Shown here: one piece after another, positions 3,162 to 6,472 of the stretch
Layout of the letters: each line of letters starts with the position of its first letter
Position numbering within the stretch: position 1 is the stretch's first letter
Virus record (IMG/VR): IMGVR_UViG_2850808358_000013
Coordinates: 1-7,858 of that record
From: a virus
Taxonomy: Duplodnaviria; Heunggongvirae; Uroviricota; Caudoviricetes
DNA length: 7,858 nucleotides
Direction: 5' to 3' (one strand)
Notes under the pieces: generated by a model
What the model was told of the DNA's origin: nothing
The model's database searches: none
The model's input: the letters and a program-made list of their open reading frames with translations, nothing else
Program-made: the position numbers and the translations under genes

Positions 3162-3800
3162 TTAAAGATTAACGTTGAAACCAAAGCGGGAAGACTTTTC
3201 CGATGTGCGGGAAATATCCAGCAATTTACGGCGCATTTCTTCCGTCAGATGCTTGAAGGCGTTAAATTCGGCGACAGCCGCATCGACGTTATAGCCGTTA
3301 CGACGTAATTCATTAAATATGCGCATTGCAGGGCTTGGCATGTCGAATAAGACGGAGGTATCAAGCTGCAATGTATTTCTATCAACATAGTTCATCGTGG
3401 CATAGGGGTGATGCTCTGAAAACCACGATAAAGGGAAATTGATATTCATCGCAGGAGAAGACAGGGCCAGTTGTTTCTGTTCCCATAGTTGTTTTTCCAT
3501 GCGATCGAATTCAGCAATGTAGGCTTCCTTGAATGCAGCTGCTTTTTTGCCGGTGAAGCCCATCACCAGAAAAACGAAGCCGTTTTTGGTGATTTGGTAG
3601 GCGTTATAGGTATTGCCTCGGTGTTCGAATTTAACCCGCGAAAAGTTGCGGGTTAAGAATTGCTCAGAGCATTCGAGGGATTCTATTTTCTGAACAACAT
3701 GGTGATGCTGCTTGCCAAAAAACTCAGCAATCGAAATAGAAGTAGTGACGGCGCGACCATTTTCGATGGTTACGTCAGGGTGAGAAAGGGTAGTAGCCAT
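3162..3800 (-). CDS. rha: Rha-family phage regulatory protein (pRha domain; antirepressor-like)
   Basis: N-terminus MATTLSHPDVTIENGRAVTTSISIAEFFGKQHHHVVQKIESL...YQITKNGFVFLVMGFTGKKAAAFKEAYIAEFDRME matches the pRha N-terminal domain as I remember it. Start chosen at ATG 3800 (GAGGA 7 nt upstream) rather than the track's 3959; the 53-codon in-frame extension is GC-rich and low-complexity. Confidence 0.8.
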   Translation of the reverse strand: MATTLSHPDVTIENGRAVTTSISIAEFFGKQHHHVVQKIESLECSEQFLTRNFSRVKFEHRGNTYNAYQITKNGFVFLVMGFTGKKAAAFKEAYIAEFDRMEKQLWEQKQLALSSPAMNINFPLSWFSEHHPYATMNYVDRNTLQLDTSVLFDMPSPAMRIFNELRRNGYNVDAAVAEFNAFKHLTEEMRRKLLDISRTSEKSSRFGFNVNL

Positions 3801-3830
3801 AATGACATCCTCAAGTGATAAGTTAATTAA

Positions 3831-3937
3831 CTCACCACCAGAGGTGCTAATCTCATGGGTGGTGAGACGCACAGGGTTAGCACTACCGGTCACTCGAGAA
3901 CCCGGCCAGCCTTGCGGCTGCCCCGCACGCCTCACCA
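3831..3937 (-). promoter_or_regulatory. Structured 5' leader of rha with three copies of a complementary motif allowing alternative hairpins
   Basis: Plus-strand ctcaccacc (3831-3839) and ggtggtgag (3858-3866) form a perfect 9-bp stem; a third copy ctcacca (3931-3937) can alternatively pair with the middle element. cagcc-ttgc-ggctg (3907-3920) is a GCAA (GNRA) tetraloop hairpin on the minus-strand RNA. Confidence 0.4.
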
Positions 3938-3961
3938 TAATTTGAATGTGGCTGTGCATTA

Positions 3962-4043
3962 CGCATAAAAAAACCGCTTCAGCGCGGTTATGCGCTCGAG
4001 TAACTTTCGGGGTGCTAATCCCGGCACCCGTTTTATGAGGTGT
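3962..4043 (-). ncRNA. Putative small RNA (about 80 nt) between a promoter-like motif and an intrinsic terminator; hypothetical
   Basis: Minus-strand -35 TTGACT (4078-4073), 17-nt spacer, -10 TATATT (4055-4050). The predicted transcript 5'-ACACCUCAUAAAACGGGUGCCGGGAUUAGCACCCCGAAAGUUACUCGAGCGCAUAACCGCGCUGAAGCGGUUUUUUU contains a 6-bp GC hairpin (4010-4029) and the terminator hairpin; no plausible ORF. Confidence 0.25.
3967..3989 (-). terminator. Rho-independent terminator acting on minus-strand transcripts
   Basis: Minus-strand RNA AACCGC-GCUGAA-GCGGUU followed by a U-run (plus-strand A-run 3967-3973); the stem is short, so moderate strength; preceded by a second hairpin. Confidence 0.45.
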
Positions 4044-4049
4044 TCGCCA

Positions 4050-4078
4050 AATATAGCCCCGACATCACACGCAGTCAA
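4050..4078 (-). promoter_or_regulatory. Sigma70-like promoter candidate P2 (TTGACT-17-TATATT) on the minus strand
   Basis: Hexamers read directly from the reverse complement; shares the 11-mer TATTGACTGCG with P1. Confidence 0.3.
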
Positions 4079-4383
4079 TATCGTCCTTTCTCGGAAATGC
4101 TTTGGCGGTGCCGCCTGCACCCAAAACATTCCCTGTATTGGTCAGCGCCAACTTCCTGCCAGTGTTGCCCGTTCTCACGCCGTTCTCGCTCTCGCGCGGG
4201 GATACTCTCTCATCGACCGGATCGCACCCGATGATACAGCACGTTTACGTGTAGGGGTCTAAACAGGTCATTGACGCTGTAAAGCTCCAGATTGTTAAAG
4301 AGCATTTTGCGGCGGGTTAAGTCGCGCCGTACGACTGATTTATGTAGCCCTGTGTCAGGGCGCGATGTTTCTGGCTTGGGTAA

Positions 4384-4699: not shown

Positions 4700-4954
4700 G
4701 TGGGTATGGGGAAAGCAGATAAGCTACTGGAAAAGTTTTTAAACAGTAAAAAAACGTTTGAATGGGATGAGTTGGTCGTTTTGTTTTCCTCTCTGGGATA
4801 TGTCAAAAAGGAAATGCAGGGCTCAAGAGTGCGGTTTTTCAATGCTGAAATCAACCACACCATATTAATGCATCGCCCACATCCAGAAAGTTATATTAAA
4901 GGTGGAACGCTGAAAGCGATTAAACAGAATCTGAAAGAGGCTGGGGTATTATGA
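4700..4954 (+). CDS. hicA: HicA-family toxin-like protein (YcfA/HicA fold, putative mRNA interferase); initiation may be at ATG 4706
   Basis: ..KADKLLEKFLNSKKTFEWDELVVLFSSLGY..QGSRVRFFNAEINHTILMHRPHPESYIKGGTLKAIKQNLKEAGVL fits the HicA pattern as I remember it; the stop overlaps the next start (ATGA at 4951-4954). The track start is GTG 4700. Confidence 0.7.
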   Translation: MGMGKADKLLEKFLNSKKTFEWDELVVLFSSLGYVKKEMQGSRVRFFNAEINHTILMHRPHPESYIKGGTLKAIKQNLKEAGVL

Positions 4955-5295
4955 ATCATCTAAAATATAAAGGATATTTAGGTACAGTAGAACCAGATTT
5001 TGAAAATAATATCCTGTACGGAAAACTGGCGTTTATTCGAGACCTGGTAACTTATGAGGCTTCTACATTAGCTGAACTGGAACAGGAGTTTAAGACATCG
5101 GTTGAGCTGTATTTACAGTCTTGTGTGGAGGATGGAAAGGAGCCTGATACCCCGTTTAAAGGTGTGTTTAACGTCAGACTTGATCCAGAACTGCATCGTC
5201 GGGTCGCTGAAATGGCGATGGAAGAAGATTTATCACTGAACGCCTTTGTTAATAAGGCGCTGGAAAAAGAAGTCAACCATCACACAGGGGCTTAA
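4951..5295 (+). CDS. hicB: HicB-family antitoxin-like protein with a C-terminal ribbon-helix-helix DNA-binding domain
   Basis: N-terminal YKGYLGTVEPDFENNILYGKLAFIRDL..EEPDTPF resembles HicB N-domains; C-terminal KGVFNVRLDPELHRRVAEMAMEEDLSLNAFVNKALEKEV is RHH-like; 4-bp overlap with hicA. Confidence 0.7.
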   Translation: MNHLKYKGYLGTVEPDFENNILYGKLAFIRDLVTYEASTLAELEQEFKTSVELYLQSCVEDGKEPDTPFKGVFNVRLDPELHRRVAEMAMEEDLSLNAFVNKALEKEVNHHTGA

Positions 5296-5701: not shown

Positions 5702-6421
5702 TCAATCAAAAGTCTCATCATTCCACTGCGACTTTATGACCTTTCCGACAAACGGGCAGTTTTCGTTACACTCAATCATGTCGAATCGTGGGTTGAGTGG
5801 CTCCAGGTACGCTTTACCGCTCTCACGAATGAATCGTTTGAAGGTGAATTCATCGCCATTCATTCGGGCCACGCAAAAATCGCCATCCTCAATCTCCCGC
5901 TCAGGGTCAACGAGTATCAGCATCCCTTCGGGGAAACTGGGTTTACCACCCTGCGGCGCGGTCATTGAATGCCCCTTGACCTCCAGCCAGAACGACCTGT
6001 CACTGGCTTTTGTGGTGGTGGAGATCCACTTAATCGCATCCTTTGCGGTGTACGAAAAATCATCCATTGAGAAAGCTCCAGCCTGTACGCAGGAGAGTAA
6101 CGGATATTCGTAATATTTCTCGAACAGGTTACGCCTGTTTCCCGGTGTGTGGGTACGAATACTGCGTAACAAATCACTCAGATCTGGATTAATTTCTTCC
6201 GCAGGAACCTGTAATAAAGCCGCAAACTTAAGGGTATTTTCAGTATTTAACGCAATTTTTGCGTTCAATAACTGACTAACAGCCCCCTGCGTTTTGAAGC
6301 CGAGGATATCTGCGGCTTTTTCCTGGCTTAGGGATAGCTGTTTCCGTTTTTCATCCCAGATTTTGCGCAGTCGTTCAGCGTTCTGGATGTCTTTGTCAGT
6401 AATTGTAATTTTCTTCGTCAT
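5702..6421 (-). CDS. cI: Lambda cI-like prophage repressor (N-terminal HTH, C-terminal LexA/S24 autopeptidase domain)
   Basis: The C-terminal half is nearly colinear with lambda cI as I recall it (..[16 protein letters not shown].., ..[30 protein letters not shown].., ..[13 protein letters not shown].., ..[14 protein letters not shown]); Ala-Gly cleavage site, Ser (GHSM) and Lys (FKRF) all present. Start set at ATG 6421 (GGAGG 4 nt upstream) rather than the track's 6460. Confidence 0.9.
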
Positions 6422-6472
6422 AGTGCCTCCAATTTTATTAGCAACACAAATATTTATCAAATAGCTGGCCTG

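Follow-up and report, generated by a model that had tools for sequence, protein, structure and literature searches.

What kind of element occupies the GC-rich 160 nt (3801-3960) between a terminator and the start codon of rha, and does it control this gene at the RNA level? The window, meaning the whole stretch of 7,858 nucleotides analysed here (IMG/VR record IMGVR_UViG_2850808358_000013, Caudoviricetes), was described in a first-pass annotation as carrying at this place an attenuator or riboregulatory leader with mutually exclusive hairpins, and all four sequence features that it listed are present at the coordinates it gave. Since rha is read leftwards, the sequence has to be considered on the minus strand:

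3162-3800, minus strand: rha, the regulated gene, 212 aa, with a Phage_pRha domain (PF09669, 92.7 bits) and its ATG at 3800-3798

The small antisense RNA c4 was first described in phage P1, and the region before rha is the gene for a c4-family antisense RNA (Rfam RF01695). It is a typical representative of a known, catalogued family and not a new attenuator. Moreover, the larger interval 4078-3798 (minus strand) very probably represents a complete antisense control module of the P1 immI type, placed before the rha gene of a lambdoid prophage. The parts of c4 that the following account requires are these:

3855-3942, minus strand: c4 antisense RNA gene, span of the Rfam model (RF01695 match)
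3936-3858, minus strand: predicted mature c4 RNA, 79 nt (homology with the curated ends of the 77-nt P1 c4)
3921-3937, minus strand: c4 outer stem, 5' strand, including the 'third copy' 3931-3937 of the first-pass annotation (Rfam fold, inverted repeat, covariation)
3860-3876, minus strand: c4 outer stem, 3' strand (Rfam fold, inverted repeat, covariation)
3907-3920, minus strand: c4 hairpin 1 with a GCAA tetraloop, previously listed as a GNRA hairpin (Rfam fold, folding)
3890-3901, minus strand: b', the 12-nt loop of c4 hairpin 2, GUUCUCGAGUGA, pairing with b2 and b1 (Rfam fold, duplex search)
3877-3884, minus strand: a', the single-stranded c4 junction, AGUGCUAA, pairing with a2 and a1 (Rfam fold, duplex search)

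The Rfam covariance model for C4 matches the window over its full length (model positions 1-87) and scores 78.6 bits, with a cut-off of 45 and E = 1.3e-14. The 88-nt core has a folding energy of -46.9 kcal/mol (z = -4.15; 0 of 200 shuffles as stable), and its minimum free energy fold is the structure of the Rfam model, a long outer stem around two hairpins. This shape is backed by compensatory changes: across 21 homologues 99.8% of 566 cells in the three-helix fold are paired, compared with 32-47% in slid controls, and two-sided changes occur in 15 of the 27 pairs. The outer stem is formed by a 17-nt imperfect inverted repeat (3921-3937 and 3860-3876), to which the supposed third copy of the repeat motif, CTCACCA at 3931-3937, belongs. 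Hairpin 1 reads CAGCC-GCAA-GGCUG on the minus strand; among the homologues it shows compensatory changes in 5/5 pairs, and its loop alternates between GNRA and UNCG types. Directly before the outer stem, AU|GG is invariant at 3939-3936 and matches the position of the mature c4 5' end in P1. A C4 match was obtained in all 19 c4-bearing loci scanned, with an adjacent isrK match in 18 of them, including P1-like and N15-like phage, and GenBank LC710660, the record of a related Stx phage, already has isrK and C4 annotated in the same layout.

The terminator that had been taken as the left boundary of the leader does exist (3989-3972, minus strand; a terminator-like hairpin and its U-run), but it is part of an upstream isrK/a1b1 RNA that belongs to the same system:

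4050-4078, minus strand: promoter-like site for the isrK/c4/rha transcript, with -35 TTGACT, a 17-nt spacer and -10 TATATT (consensus match)
3967-4043, minus strand: isrK-type RNA with two hairpins and a terminator, bearing the upstream c4 target copies a1 and b1 (Rfam RF01394)
4012-4018, minus strand: a1 (UUAGCAC), in the loop of isrK hairpin 2, complementary to c4 a' (repeat search; corresponds to the curated P1 a1)
3995-4004, minus strand: b1 (GUUACUCGAG), complementary to the c4 b' loop (inverted repeat, duplex search)
3965-3989, minus strand: intrinsic terminator of isrK, stem-loop 3989-3972 and U-run (terminator scan; last hairpin of the isrK model)

The isrK model RF01394 matches the window at full length (61.6 bits, cut-off 50), 24 nt from the C4 match, and this RNA has a promoter-like site and an intrinsic terminator of its own. 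The promoter-like site (4078-4050) agrees with the consensus at 10 of 12 positions, is the sole such site in 3700-4300 and is collinear in an alignment with Gifsy-1 PisrK and with P1-like promoters; the predicted transcript start is at about 4043. The second copies of the c4 targets lie upstream of c4, a1 at 4018-4012 and b1 at 4004-3995, and their order is that of the curated sites in P1. The c4-a1b1 model (RF03163) scores 17.5 bits in the window, below its threshold of 46.7, and exceeds this threshold in P1 (51 bits), Gifsy-1 (48.1 bits) and three other loci, where its matches overlap the isrK match or occupy the place expected for isrK. Hfq binding by isrK and its accumulation as an sRNA of ~77 nt are known from the Salmonella homologue (PMC4825925).

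Downstream of c4, the following elements separate it from the rha start codon:

3844-3850, minus strand: a2 (UUAGCAC), in the loop of an alternative helix (repeat, duplex search, covariation)
3831-3839, minus strand: GGUGGUGAG, the 3' arm of this alternative helix, pairing with 3866-3858 (inverted repeat, covariation)
3807-3818, minus strand: b2 (UCACUUGAGGAU), overlapping the rha Shine-Dalgarno GAGGA at 3812-3808 (duplex search)

In the window, a' (3884-3877) pairs with a2 (3850-3844) and b' (3901-3890) with b2 (3818-3807), and UUAGCAC or its complement occurs there only as a1, a' and a2. The a2 site stands 7 nt past the predicted c4 3' end and 4-5 nt past the 88-nt Rfam span; in all 25 specificity types it is found 3-8 nt past the 3' end of that span, while b2 in most of the types lies ~34-37 nt past it, abutting or overlapping the Shine-Dalgarno. 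The c4 elements and their target sites co-vary across the 25 specificity types; besides the UUAGCAC type of the window, the module types include UUCUCAC and GUGGAAA. An a2 site is bound best by its cognate a' in 24 types, and a b2 site by its cognate b' in 18, with mean duplex energies of -8.9 kcal/mol for cognate versus -3.8 for non-cognate a pairs, and of -12.8 versus -6.6 for b pairs. Covariation of a' and a2 in fixed columns is 0.573, compared with 0.175 in shuffles, and 0/500 reach this value. In the corresponding count for b' and b2, 56.7% of the cells are paired in the register of the window and 72.5% at -2, a low value explained by a register that varies between module types; b'/b2 was then tested by the per-module duplex search and the cognate versus non-cognate comparison given above.

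How strongly c4 might hold these sites was estimated from duplex energies plus opening energies in place of RNAcofold. The latter gave the same ddG for c4 with rha mRNA or with isrK as with scrambled a'/b' and is uninformative here, because a nested model cannot put intermolecular pairs inside a closed hairpin loop. The predicted cost of opening a' and b' within c4 is at most 0.7 kcal/mol. For the binding of c4, a net energy of about -10.5 kcal/mol is predicted with the rha mRNA and of about -16.2 kcal/mol with isrK; a2 or b2 singly would bind c4 weakly, at about -3 kcal/mol each. The window b2 is predicted to sit in a stable local hairpin whose opening costs 11.4 kcal/mol, and therefore the rha Shine-Dalgarno may be closed even without c4. 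The Shine-Dalgarno is predicted to be mostly paired in most modules, the mean unpaired probability of 0.23 including a few rows, the window among them, that were scored with a wrong start codon.

These sites suggest a pathway in which transcription would start at the promoter-like site and would first produce the isrK-type RNA, with a1 and b1, ending at the intrinsic terminator, and in which read-through of this terminator would extend into the c4 gene and then rha. The c4 RNA of P1 is excised from a precursor co-transcribed with its target, with RNase P acting at the 5' end, and yields an RNA of ~77 nt. By homology, the window c4 would be cut from its precursor as an RNA of ~79 nt (3936-3858) with a 17-bp outer stem, two hairpins, an exposed a' junction (3884-3877) and an exposed b' loop (3901-3890). 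The mature RNA would then pair with a2 and b2, and because b2 covers the rha Shine-Dalgarno, the c4:b2 pairing would block translation of rha. The terminated isrK RNA is likely to compete for c4 and so lift the block, since it offers both sites in accessible form. Homologous modules stand before genes annotated as Ant, anti-repressor or Rha; the Rha of the window is assumed here to be an antirepressor. Control of an antirepressor-type gene at the RNA level, as first proposed for this leader, is a notion that the comparative evidence favours, pointing to the downstream Rha-family gene as the one controlled.

The 9-bp repeat that first drew attention to the region has its own place in this pathway. 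Its arms at 3831-3839 (CTCACCACC) and 3858-3866 (GGTGGTGAG) are perfectly complementary, and the repeat alone is borderline, because 13 of 500 dinucleotide shuffles of 3801-3960 contain one that is equally perfect and 9 bp or longer. A lack of covariation among homologues had been named as the outcome that would speak against the leader; the check was run and covariation is present, the alternative helix being 94.4% paired in homologues with compensatory changes in 5 of 9 pairs. Its 5' arm (3866-3858) consists of the last 7 nt of the c4 outer stem 3' strand plus a CC tail (3859-3858) that the Rfam c4 fold leaves unpaired. The repeat may act as a precursor-only helix, in which the c4 3' end is joined to the sequence just beyond a2; this helix would compete with the c4 outer stem and would set a2 in a loop. 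With c4 intact, the predicted probability is 0.96 for the outer stem and 0.015 for the alternative helix, and the latter is predicted to form in some other modules only. A switch with three states, with the alternative helix exposing the Shine-Dalgarno, was rejected, since the window helix has a predicted probability of 0.00 in every context tested. In the window, 3831-3839 also supplies the 5' arm of a hairpin in which the rha Shine-Dalgarno is buried. This hairpin (3809-3826/3827-3844) was also rejected as a conserved structure, with 60.4% paired versus 58.2% in shuffles in the window register.

Several characterized systems share parts of this arrangement. The c4 of P1/P7 immI (RF01695; curated in NC_005856) has the same covariance model and three-helix fold, and P1 shows the same order of promoter, a1, b1, terminator-like hairpin, c4, a2, b2/SD and next gene; its C4 match adjoins c4-a1b1, and its curated c4, a1, b1, a2 and b2 are ordered as in the window. 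Both also have a' in the junction and b' in the loop of hairpin 2, a b2 that covers the Shine-Dalgarno of the ORF behind it and an invariant AU|GG at the start of the mature RNA, and in both an alternative helix links the 3' end of c4 with what follows a2 (in P1 CCUGCCACC/GGUAGCAGG, 8/9). However, the regulated ORF in the window is rha itself, whereas in P1 it is the small icd ORF, translationally coupled to ant. An icd-like ORF is absent between the c4 targets and the regulated gene, and b2/SD leads directly into the 212-aa rha ORF, so the window module would work like immI and not as an icd-ant operon. The a and b sequences also differ from those of P1, indicating a different specificity, and heteroimmunity of P1 and P7 via c4 has been known since 1990. 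The upstream element of the window scores 61.6 bits with isrK and 17.5 with c4-a1b1, with the reverse in P1, and the host of the module is a lambdoid prophage with an S24/LexA-type repressor, unlike the plasmid prophage P1 with its C1.

The CI RNA/seqA/seqC of P4 and the CA RNA of N15 are similar in that a processed small RNA lies between upstream and downstream complementary sites on its own transcript, and the N15-like phage YDC107_1 has an isrK and C4 pair in the same layout as the window. Both systems are described as acting via premature transcription termination (in part in PMC4825925); in the window, by contrast, the downstream site is on the Shine-Dalgarno and no terminator follows c4. 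As in P22 sar/ant (PMC12197685), a small RNA is predicted to block translation initiation of an antirepressor, but sar is made from the strand opposite its target, while c4 comes from the same strand and uses two short separated elements.

The closest experimental record comes from Gifsy-1 (Hershko-Shalev et al. 2016, PMC4825925), where isrK is likewise followed by a C4-scoring region and then by an antirepressor gene. The published "orf45"/STnc1160 region of Gifsy-1 scores 69 bits as C4, with isrK at 79.3 bits, and STnc1160 is a processed RNA of ~80 nt from the homologous region (PMC4825925). Further likenesses are read-through at the isrK terminator, extended pairing between isrK and c4 within the precursor and a leader frame that opens at the same AUGG. 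The orf45 stop overlaps the anrP start, whereas the window frame is fused to rha, a condition also noted for S. dysenteriae (PMC4825925), and the downstream proteins differ in type (AnrP MTTQISVE..., Rha MATTLSHP...). When we mapped the published mutants, the compensatory pairs G28-C162 and G31-C159 fell on a1:a' and G114-C175 on the c4 outer stem. Point mutants of a' derepress anrP (484 and 926 versus 4 Miller units in the wild type; PMC4825925). The a1 mutants G28A and G31A raise basal expression (93 and 218 versus 4 Miller units; PMC4825925), which would not be predicted from a pure decoy role of a1/b1 and suggests an added role in termination or precursor folding.

Could the same sequence be explained without an antisense RNA? 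In a cis-acting transcription attenuator, alternative leader hairpins would decide whether RNA polymerase terminates before rha. The conserved, covarying structure and the RNA-level control implied by such a leader hold, and mutually exclusive helices do exist, namely the outer stem of c4 and the competing 9-bp helix (3866-3858/3839-3831), both of which covary. However, the sequence is a c4 gene, and it is not a transcription attenuator because no terminator separates c4 from rha: between 3942 and 3800 on the minus strand there is no terminator-like hairpin with a U-run, the only one being 3989-3972, upstream of c4. The A/U-rich tract said to follow the 3'-most hairpin was unflagged in the intrinsic terminator scan and pairs into another stem, as loop and 3' arm of hairpin 3809-3826/3827-3844; no riboswitch or leader family matches; and the partners with which the variable loop and junction elements covary are distant sites rather than a terminator. 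For the sensing step, the leader frame is open, but without a Shine-Dalgarno or codon periodicity. A cis-acting attenuator is very improbable. Gene callers annotate the region in several phages as the N-terminal coding part of a longer Rha, here a 265-aa ORF (3959-3162) that is indeed open in frame, and public records call such long CDSs. This seems extremely improbable to us: codon-position bias is absent upstream of ATG 3800 (0.30/0.29/0.30) and clear inside rha (0.26/0.19/0.43), the Shine-Dalgarno and ATG at 3812-3798 are conserved in homologues, and the upstream region matches two RNA covariance models with compensatory base-pair changes. A coding N-terminal extension of Rha was rejected for its missing codon periodicity.

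Translation of a separate leader is the mechanism published for Gifsy-1, in which the region would mainly be an upstream ORF, 'orf45', and isrK in trans would refold the read-through transcript, allowing ribosomes to enter at the leader ORF and proceed to the gene downstream, here rha. Tagged orf45 is translated in Gifsy-1 and start-codon or stop mutations reduce anrP activation (PMC4825925); reading from AUG 3938, or from AUG 3959, the window has an open frame, the same as that of rha; of 24 module types, 12 lack stops between the start of isrK and the ATG of the gene when read in the frame of the gene, compared with 0 and 4 for the two other frames; and the fold predicted for the full precursor has isrK and c4 paired, as in the published 'structure A' (z = -6.6). 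The region nevertheless has no codon periodicity, a recognisable Shine-Dalgarno is missing at both AUG codons, and in-frame stops occur in P1-like, N15-like and Gifsy-type modules. The start-codon mutants of Gifsy-1 may have hit RNA processing, because this AUG falls in the invariant AU|GG that marks the 5' end of mature P1 c4. In the published double mutants with isrK:orf45 pairing restored, repression does not return (224 and 327 versus 4 Miller units), as expected if a' must also match a2. We regard such coupling as an unlikely main mechanism, and it is compatible with the c4 model rather than exclusive of it. In an action of the P4/N15 type, c4 would mainly pair with a1/b1 on the nascent RNA, enforcing isrK termination and limiting read-through rather than blocking the rha Shine-Dalgarno. 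The sites a1/b1 lie directly before the terminator, predicted c4 binding is stronger there than at a2/b2, basal expression rises in a1 mutants of Gifsy-1, isrK in trans lifts a transcriptional fusion 8-fold, and the Gifsy-1 authors themselves draw the analogy with P4 CI/seqA (PMC4825925). Nonetheless, b2 covaries with b' and sits on the Shine-Dalgarno in most types, neither of which a termination-only model needs, and the 139-fold translational effect in Gifsy-1 is far above the 8-fold transcriptional one (PMC4825925). As the main mode this appears unlikely, and P4/N15-type termination is probably an additional layer, not an alternative, to the translational block by c4.

Given this c4 reading, it is possible, and we put it forward tentatively, that the 'IsrK-orf45-AnrP' of Gifsy-1 and the 'a1b1-c4-a2b2-ant' of P1 are one module, in which orf45/STnc1160 would be the c4 RNA, IsrK the terminated a1b1 decoy (an anti-antisense RNA) and the conserved helix a precursor-only switch displaying a2, with Rha-linked cassettes kept stop-free in the rha frame, so that upstream ribosomes could read through and bypass c4. 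A limited literature search found no paper equating STnc1160 with c4 or IsrK with a1b1, and a 2025 review treats IsrK and c4 as unrelated. The Gifsy-1 paper calls the region an ORF and refers to P4 CI/seqA; the P1 c4 papers are uncited in it, 'Citron' and 'RNase P' being absent from its text (PMC4825925).

None of this module biology is new in kind. The module would represent a sequence-addressed switch on antirepressor genes of lambdoid, P1-like and N15-like prophages, including Stx-converting phages. The sampled modules, a small sample, contain at least 14 a-types and at least 21 b-types in combinatorial assortment, which implies that co-resident prophages are connected in a network of cross-immunity and cross-induction. 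Recognition of the RNA genes also allows the start sites of rha/ant to be corrected, as gene callers repeatedly extend these ORFs through isrK and c4; examples of such mis-extended ORFs are sb41 of ST64B, several 'Ant' genes of Stx phages and a RefSeq Rha protein.

The c4 antisense RNAs have been known as a family since 1990, and the module before rha is a member of this family, which has its own Rfam entry and for which a sibling phage already carries an annotation. Scanned against Rfam, the whole window yields two full-length matches above the curated thresholds, both on the minus strand. Following the naming of the a and b elements in P1 (curated record NC_005856), the parts of the module are:

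4078-4050, minus strand: promoter-like site, near-consensus (TTGACT, 17 nt, TATATT), 7 nt before the isrK model start
4043-3967, minus strand: isrK (RF01394), 61.6 bits, cut-off 50
4018-4012, minus strand: a1, UUAGCAC, in the loop of an isrK hairpin, complementary to a'
4004-3995, minus strand: b1, complementary to b'
3942-3855, minus strand: C4 antisense RNA (RF01695), 78.6 bits, cut-off 45
3901-3890, minus strand: b', GUUCUCGAGUGA, exposed in the 12-nt loop of c4 hairpin 2
3884-3877, minus strand: a', AGUGCUAA, exposed in the c4 junction
3850-3844, minus strand: a2, UUAGCAC, 7 nt past the predicted c4 3' end, complementary to a'
3818-3807, minus strand: b2, UCACUUGAGGAU, complementary to b', covering the rha Shine-Dalgarno
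3812-3808, minus strand: rha Shine-Dalgarno, GAGGA
3800-3798, minus strand: rha start codon, ATG

The complement of a', UUAGCAC, occurs on the minus strand of the window only at a1 and a2, and no second promoter-like site of this kind was found within 3700-4300. The elements that the first-pass annotation had described are all present and find their place in this module: the third copy of CTCACCA (3931-3937) and the middle element pair as the outer stem of c4 (17 bp), hairpin 1 of c4 is the GNRA hairpin (GCAA tetraloop, 3907-3920), and the upstream terminator, a hairpin and U-run resembling a terminator at 3989-3972, is that of isrK. The 9-bp inverted repeat (3831-3839/3858-3866) is perfect, and a 17-nt imperfect repeat (3860-3876/3921-3937) was also found. 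Taken alone the 9-bp repeat is borderline, because dinucleotide-shuffled versions of 3801-3960 contain a perfect repeat of 9 bp or more in 13 of 500 cases; the folding energy of the 88-nt core is -46.9 kcal/mol (z = -4.15).

Homologous modules were collected from 79 IMG/VR loci found via the Rha protein and from GenBank phages found with blastn. Across 21 distinct C4 sequences, 99.8% of 566 cells are paired as the Rfam structure requires, with double-sided changes in 15 of 27 pairs, while sliding the partners by 1-3 columns leaves only 32-47% paired; the hairpin 1 tetraloop alternates between GNRA and UNCG. The fold covaries, so that the structured leader of the first-pass annotation, which had named covariation among homologues as a check, withstands this comparison. 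Its reading of rha as a gene under RNA control is also supported, but the element is a c4 antisense RNA gene lacking the terminator of an attenuator.

The collected modules carry 25 distinct a'/b' combinations, built from 14 a' and 21 b' sequences. In 25/25 types a2 is located 3-8 nt beyond the end of the 88-nt span of the c4 model; b2 follows in most types at about 34-37 nt beyond the same end, against the Shine-Dalgarno. The cognate a' binds its own a2 best in 24/25 types (-8.9 against -3.8 kcal/mol for non-cognate pairs) and the cognate b' its own b2 in 18/25 (-12.8 against -6.6 kcal/mol); the upstream sites give a similar picture, with the cognate best in 15/25 and 14/25. With fixed columns the a'/a2 covariation score is 0.573 versus 0.175 in shuffles, none of 500 reaching the observed value. 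A three-way co-variation of this kind marks an antisense RNA whose targets are addressed by sequence.

The a and b specificities assort independently across module types, b' GUUCUCGAGUGA, for example, being combined with three distinct a' sequences and a' UACGCCAA with six distinct b' sequences, which implies recombination between the two address elements. In one locus (L003, about 1058-1203) a' GUAGCAA mismatches its own a1 UUAGCAC and fits its own a2 UUAGCUAC in part only; such a mismatch suggests recombination between specificity types, or decay of this copy. In another (L053, about 1100-1190), an insertion of 10 tandem AATCACC heptamers separates the a2 hairpin from b2/Shine-Dalgarno, so that a2 and b2 stand about 90 nt apart instead of about 30 nt.

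The alignment shows an order of parts common to the window, Gifsy-1, the P1-like RCS47 and the N15-like YDC107_1; the curated P1 order is P1c4/P2c4 promoters, a1, b1, 77-nt c4, a2, b2, icd and ant. Mature P1 c4 starts with the G after AU in AU/GG and ends in ...CCACC. This AU/GG is invariant in all sequences collected, and by homology with P1 the mature c4 of the window would span 3936-3858. Both RNAs are annotated only in the record of a related Stx2 phage (LC710660), as "isrK Hfq binding RNA" and "C4 antisense RNA" before the homologous gene. In Gifsy-1 the orf45/STnc1160 region scores as C4 (69 bits) and adjoins isrK (79.3 bits), which is overlapped by c4-a1b1 (48.1 bits). We mapped the published Gifsy-1 mutations (PMC4825925) onto its sequence: A107, published as the "first AUG of orf45", falls on the invariant AUGG, G114-C175 is one of the outer-stem pairs of c4, and G28-C162 and G31-C159 are a1:a' pairs. 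Single a' mutants derepress anrP (484 and 926 Miller units, wild type 4), and double mutants restoring a1:a' are still derepressed (224 and 327 Miller units; PMC4825925). We infer, differing from the authors' reading, that this persistent derepression is what c4 repression would predict, because a' no longer fits a2. The raised basal expression of a1 mutants (PMC4825925) is unexplained by a pure decoy and suggests a further function, either in termination or in the folding of the precursor, as in P4.

To the directly observed family membership, fold, target-site positions, target co-variation and placement of b2 on the Shine-Dalgarno, P1 and Gifsy-1 add a likely course of events. Transcription would start at the 4078 promoter and partly terminate after isrK, read-through continuing into c4 and then rha; c4 would be excised from this precursor, and pairing of a'/b' with a2/b2 would block 30S binding at rha. 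Estimates including opening energies give about -3 kcal/mol for c4 on either mRNA site alone and about -10.5 kcal/mol on both, in support of cooperative two-site binding. For c4-isrK the estimate is about -16.2 kcal/mol; isrK would fit as a competitor relieving repression of rha, since c4 is predicted to bind it more strongly than the mRNA and isrK over-expression relieves repression in Gifsy-1 (PMC4825925).

The mutually exclusive hairpins proposed in the first-pass annotation are real and evolutionarily maintained. The 9-bp repeat pairs the 3'-terminal 9 nt of c4 (3866-3858), among them the CC tail that is otherwise unpaired, with GGUGGUGAG (3839-3831), in competition with the outer stem. 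This alternative helix is paired in 94.4% of cells and compensatory in 5/9 pairs (slid controls 33-61%), is extended by a short inner stem (GAG/CUC in the window; 69% paired, compensatory in 3/3 pairs), and exists in P1 as CCUGCCACC/GGUAGCAGG. Because helix and inner stem enclose a2, this site is placed in a hairpin loop, like a1 in isrK. For c4 with downstream sequence, the mean predicted probability is 0.96 for the outer stem and 0.015 for the alternative helix. With isrK attached, the outer stem drops to 0.39 on average (0.00 in the window), since isrK is predicted to pair with the a'b' region in the precursor (-106.5 kcal/mol, z = -6.6); the average for the alternative helix increases to 0.24, with its value in the window still at 0.00. 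There, GGUGGUGAG is predicted to favour a local hairpin burying the Shine-Dalgarno, for which no in-register conservation was found across homologues.

A transcription attenuator would need an intrinsic terminator after the alternative hairpins; none was found there, and this explanation fails. A longer Rha protein could be suspected from the rha frame, which has no stop for 264 nt before the ATG (3801-4064, minus strand), across isrK, terminator and c4. Between isrK start and gene ATG, the gene frame is free of stops in 12/24 module types (the other frames in 0/24 and 4/24), stop totals are 27 versus 84 and 66, and 12/12 stop-free types sit before Rha-type genes. The longer protein fails on codon periodicity (0.30/0.29/0.30 upstream versus 0.26/0.19/0.43 in rha), and because periodicity is lacking the open frame seems to reflect selection that keeps stops out, not selection for a peptide. 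Models of leader-ORF coupling or of termination are compatible additions to c4 repression and do not replace it. Several CDS annotations (deposited or RefSeq) cross isrK and/or c4 (L083 246-1403, ST64B sb41; L085 546-1205; L086 372-1205; L088 372-1394) or begin inside c4 (L001 4388-5161); the start sites in all these annotations are probably over-extended.

Three isrK-C4-rha modules, all of different specificity, stand in tandem in L073 (IMGVR_UViG_2806310672_000003, 1-2721), with C4 copies at 205-292, 1059-1146 and 1908-1994. They are enclosed by ORFs of ~285 aa (26-886, 883-1734 and 1731-2582), the ATG overlapping the preceding stop codon. In L059 (1039-1127), L062 and related loci, sRNA-Xcc1 (RF02221, 71 bits) stands at the position corresponding to that of the c4 module, just upstream of a Rha paralogue (45% identical). 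As the phage contigs with sRNA-Xcc1 also carry a c4 module, this RNA may represent another type of cassette for RNA-level control of antirepressor-like genes.

The gene neighbourhood of the module corresponds to the early-left region of a lambdoid prophage:

5702-6460: S24/HTH repressor
4951-5295: HicB (Pfam match)
4700-4954: probable HicA ORF (HicA annotation in a homologous E. coli prophage)
1342-2160: rve integrase-core ORF of an IS3-family element
1004-1306: HTH_Tnp_1 ORF of the same element

The probable HicA/HicB toxin-antitoxin pair (4700-5295) has the repressor gene on one side and the isrK promoter on the other, followed by the isrK-c4 module, rha, ORFs homologous to kil and its neighbours, the IS3-family insertion and the integrase. 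The IS3-family element (1004-2160) separates the phage integrase (1-771) from the kil/gam-side genes. Since similarity to E. coli prophages starts only at 2204, the prophage has probably been rearranged around this element.
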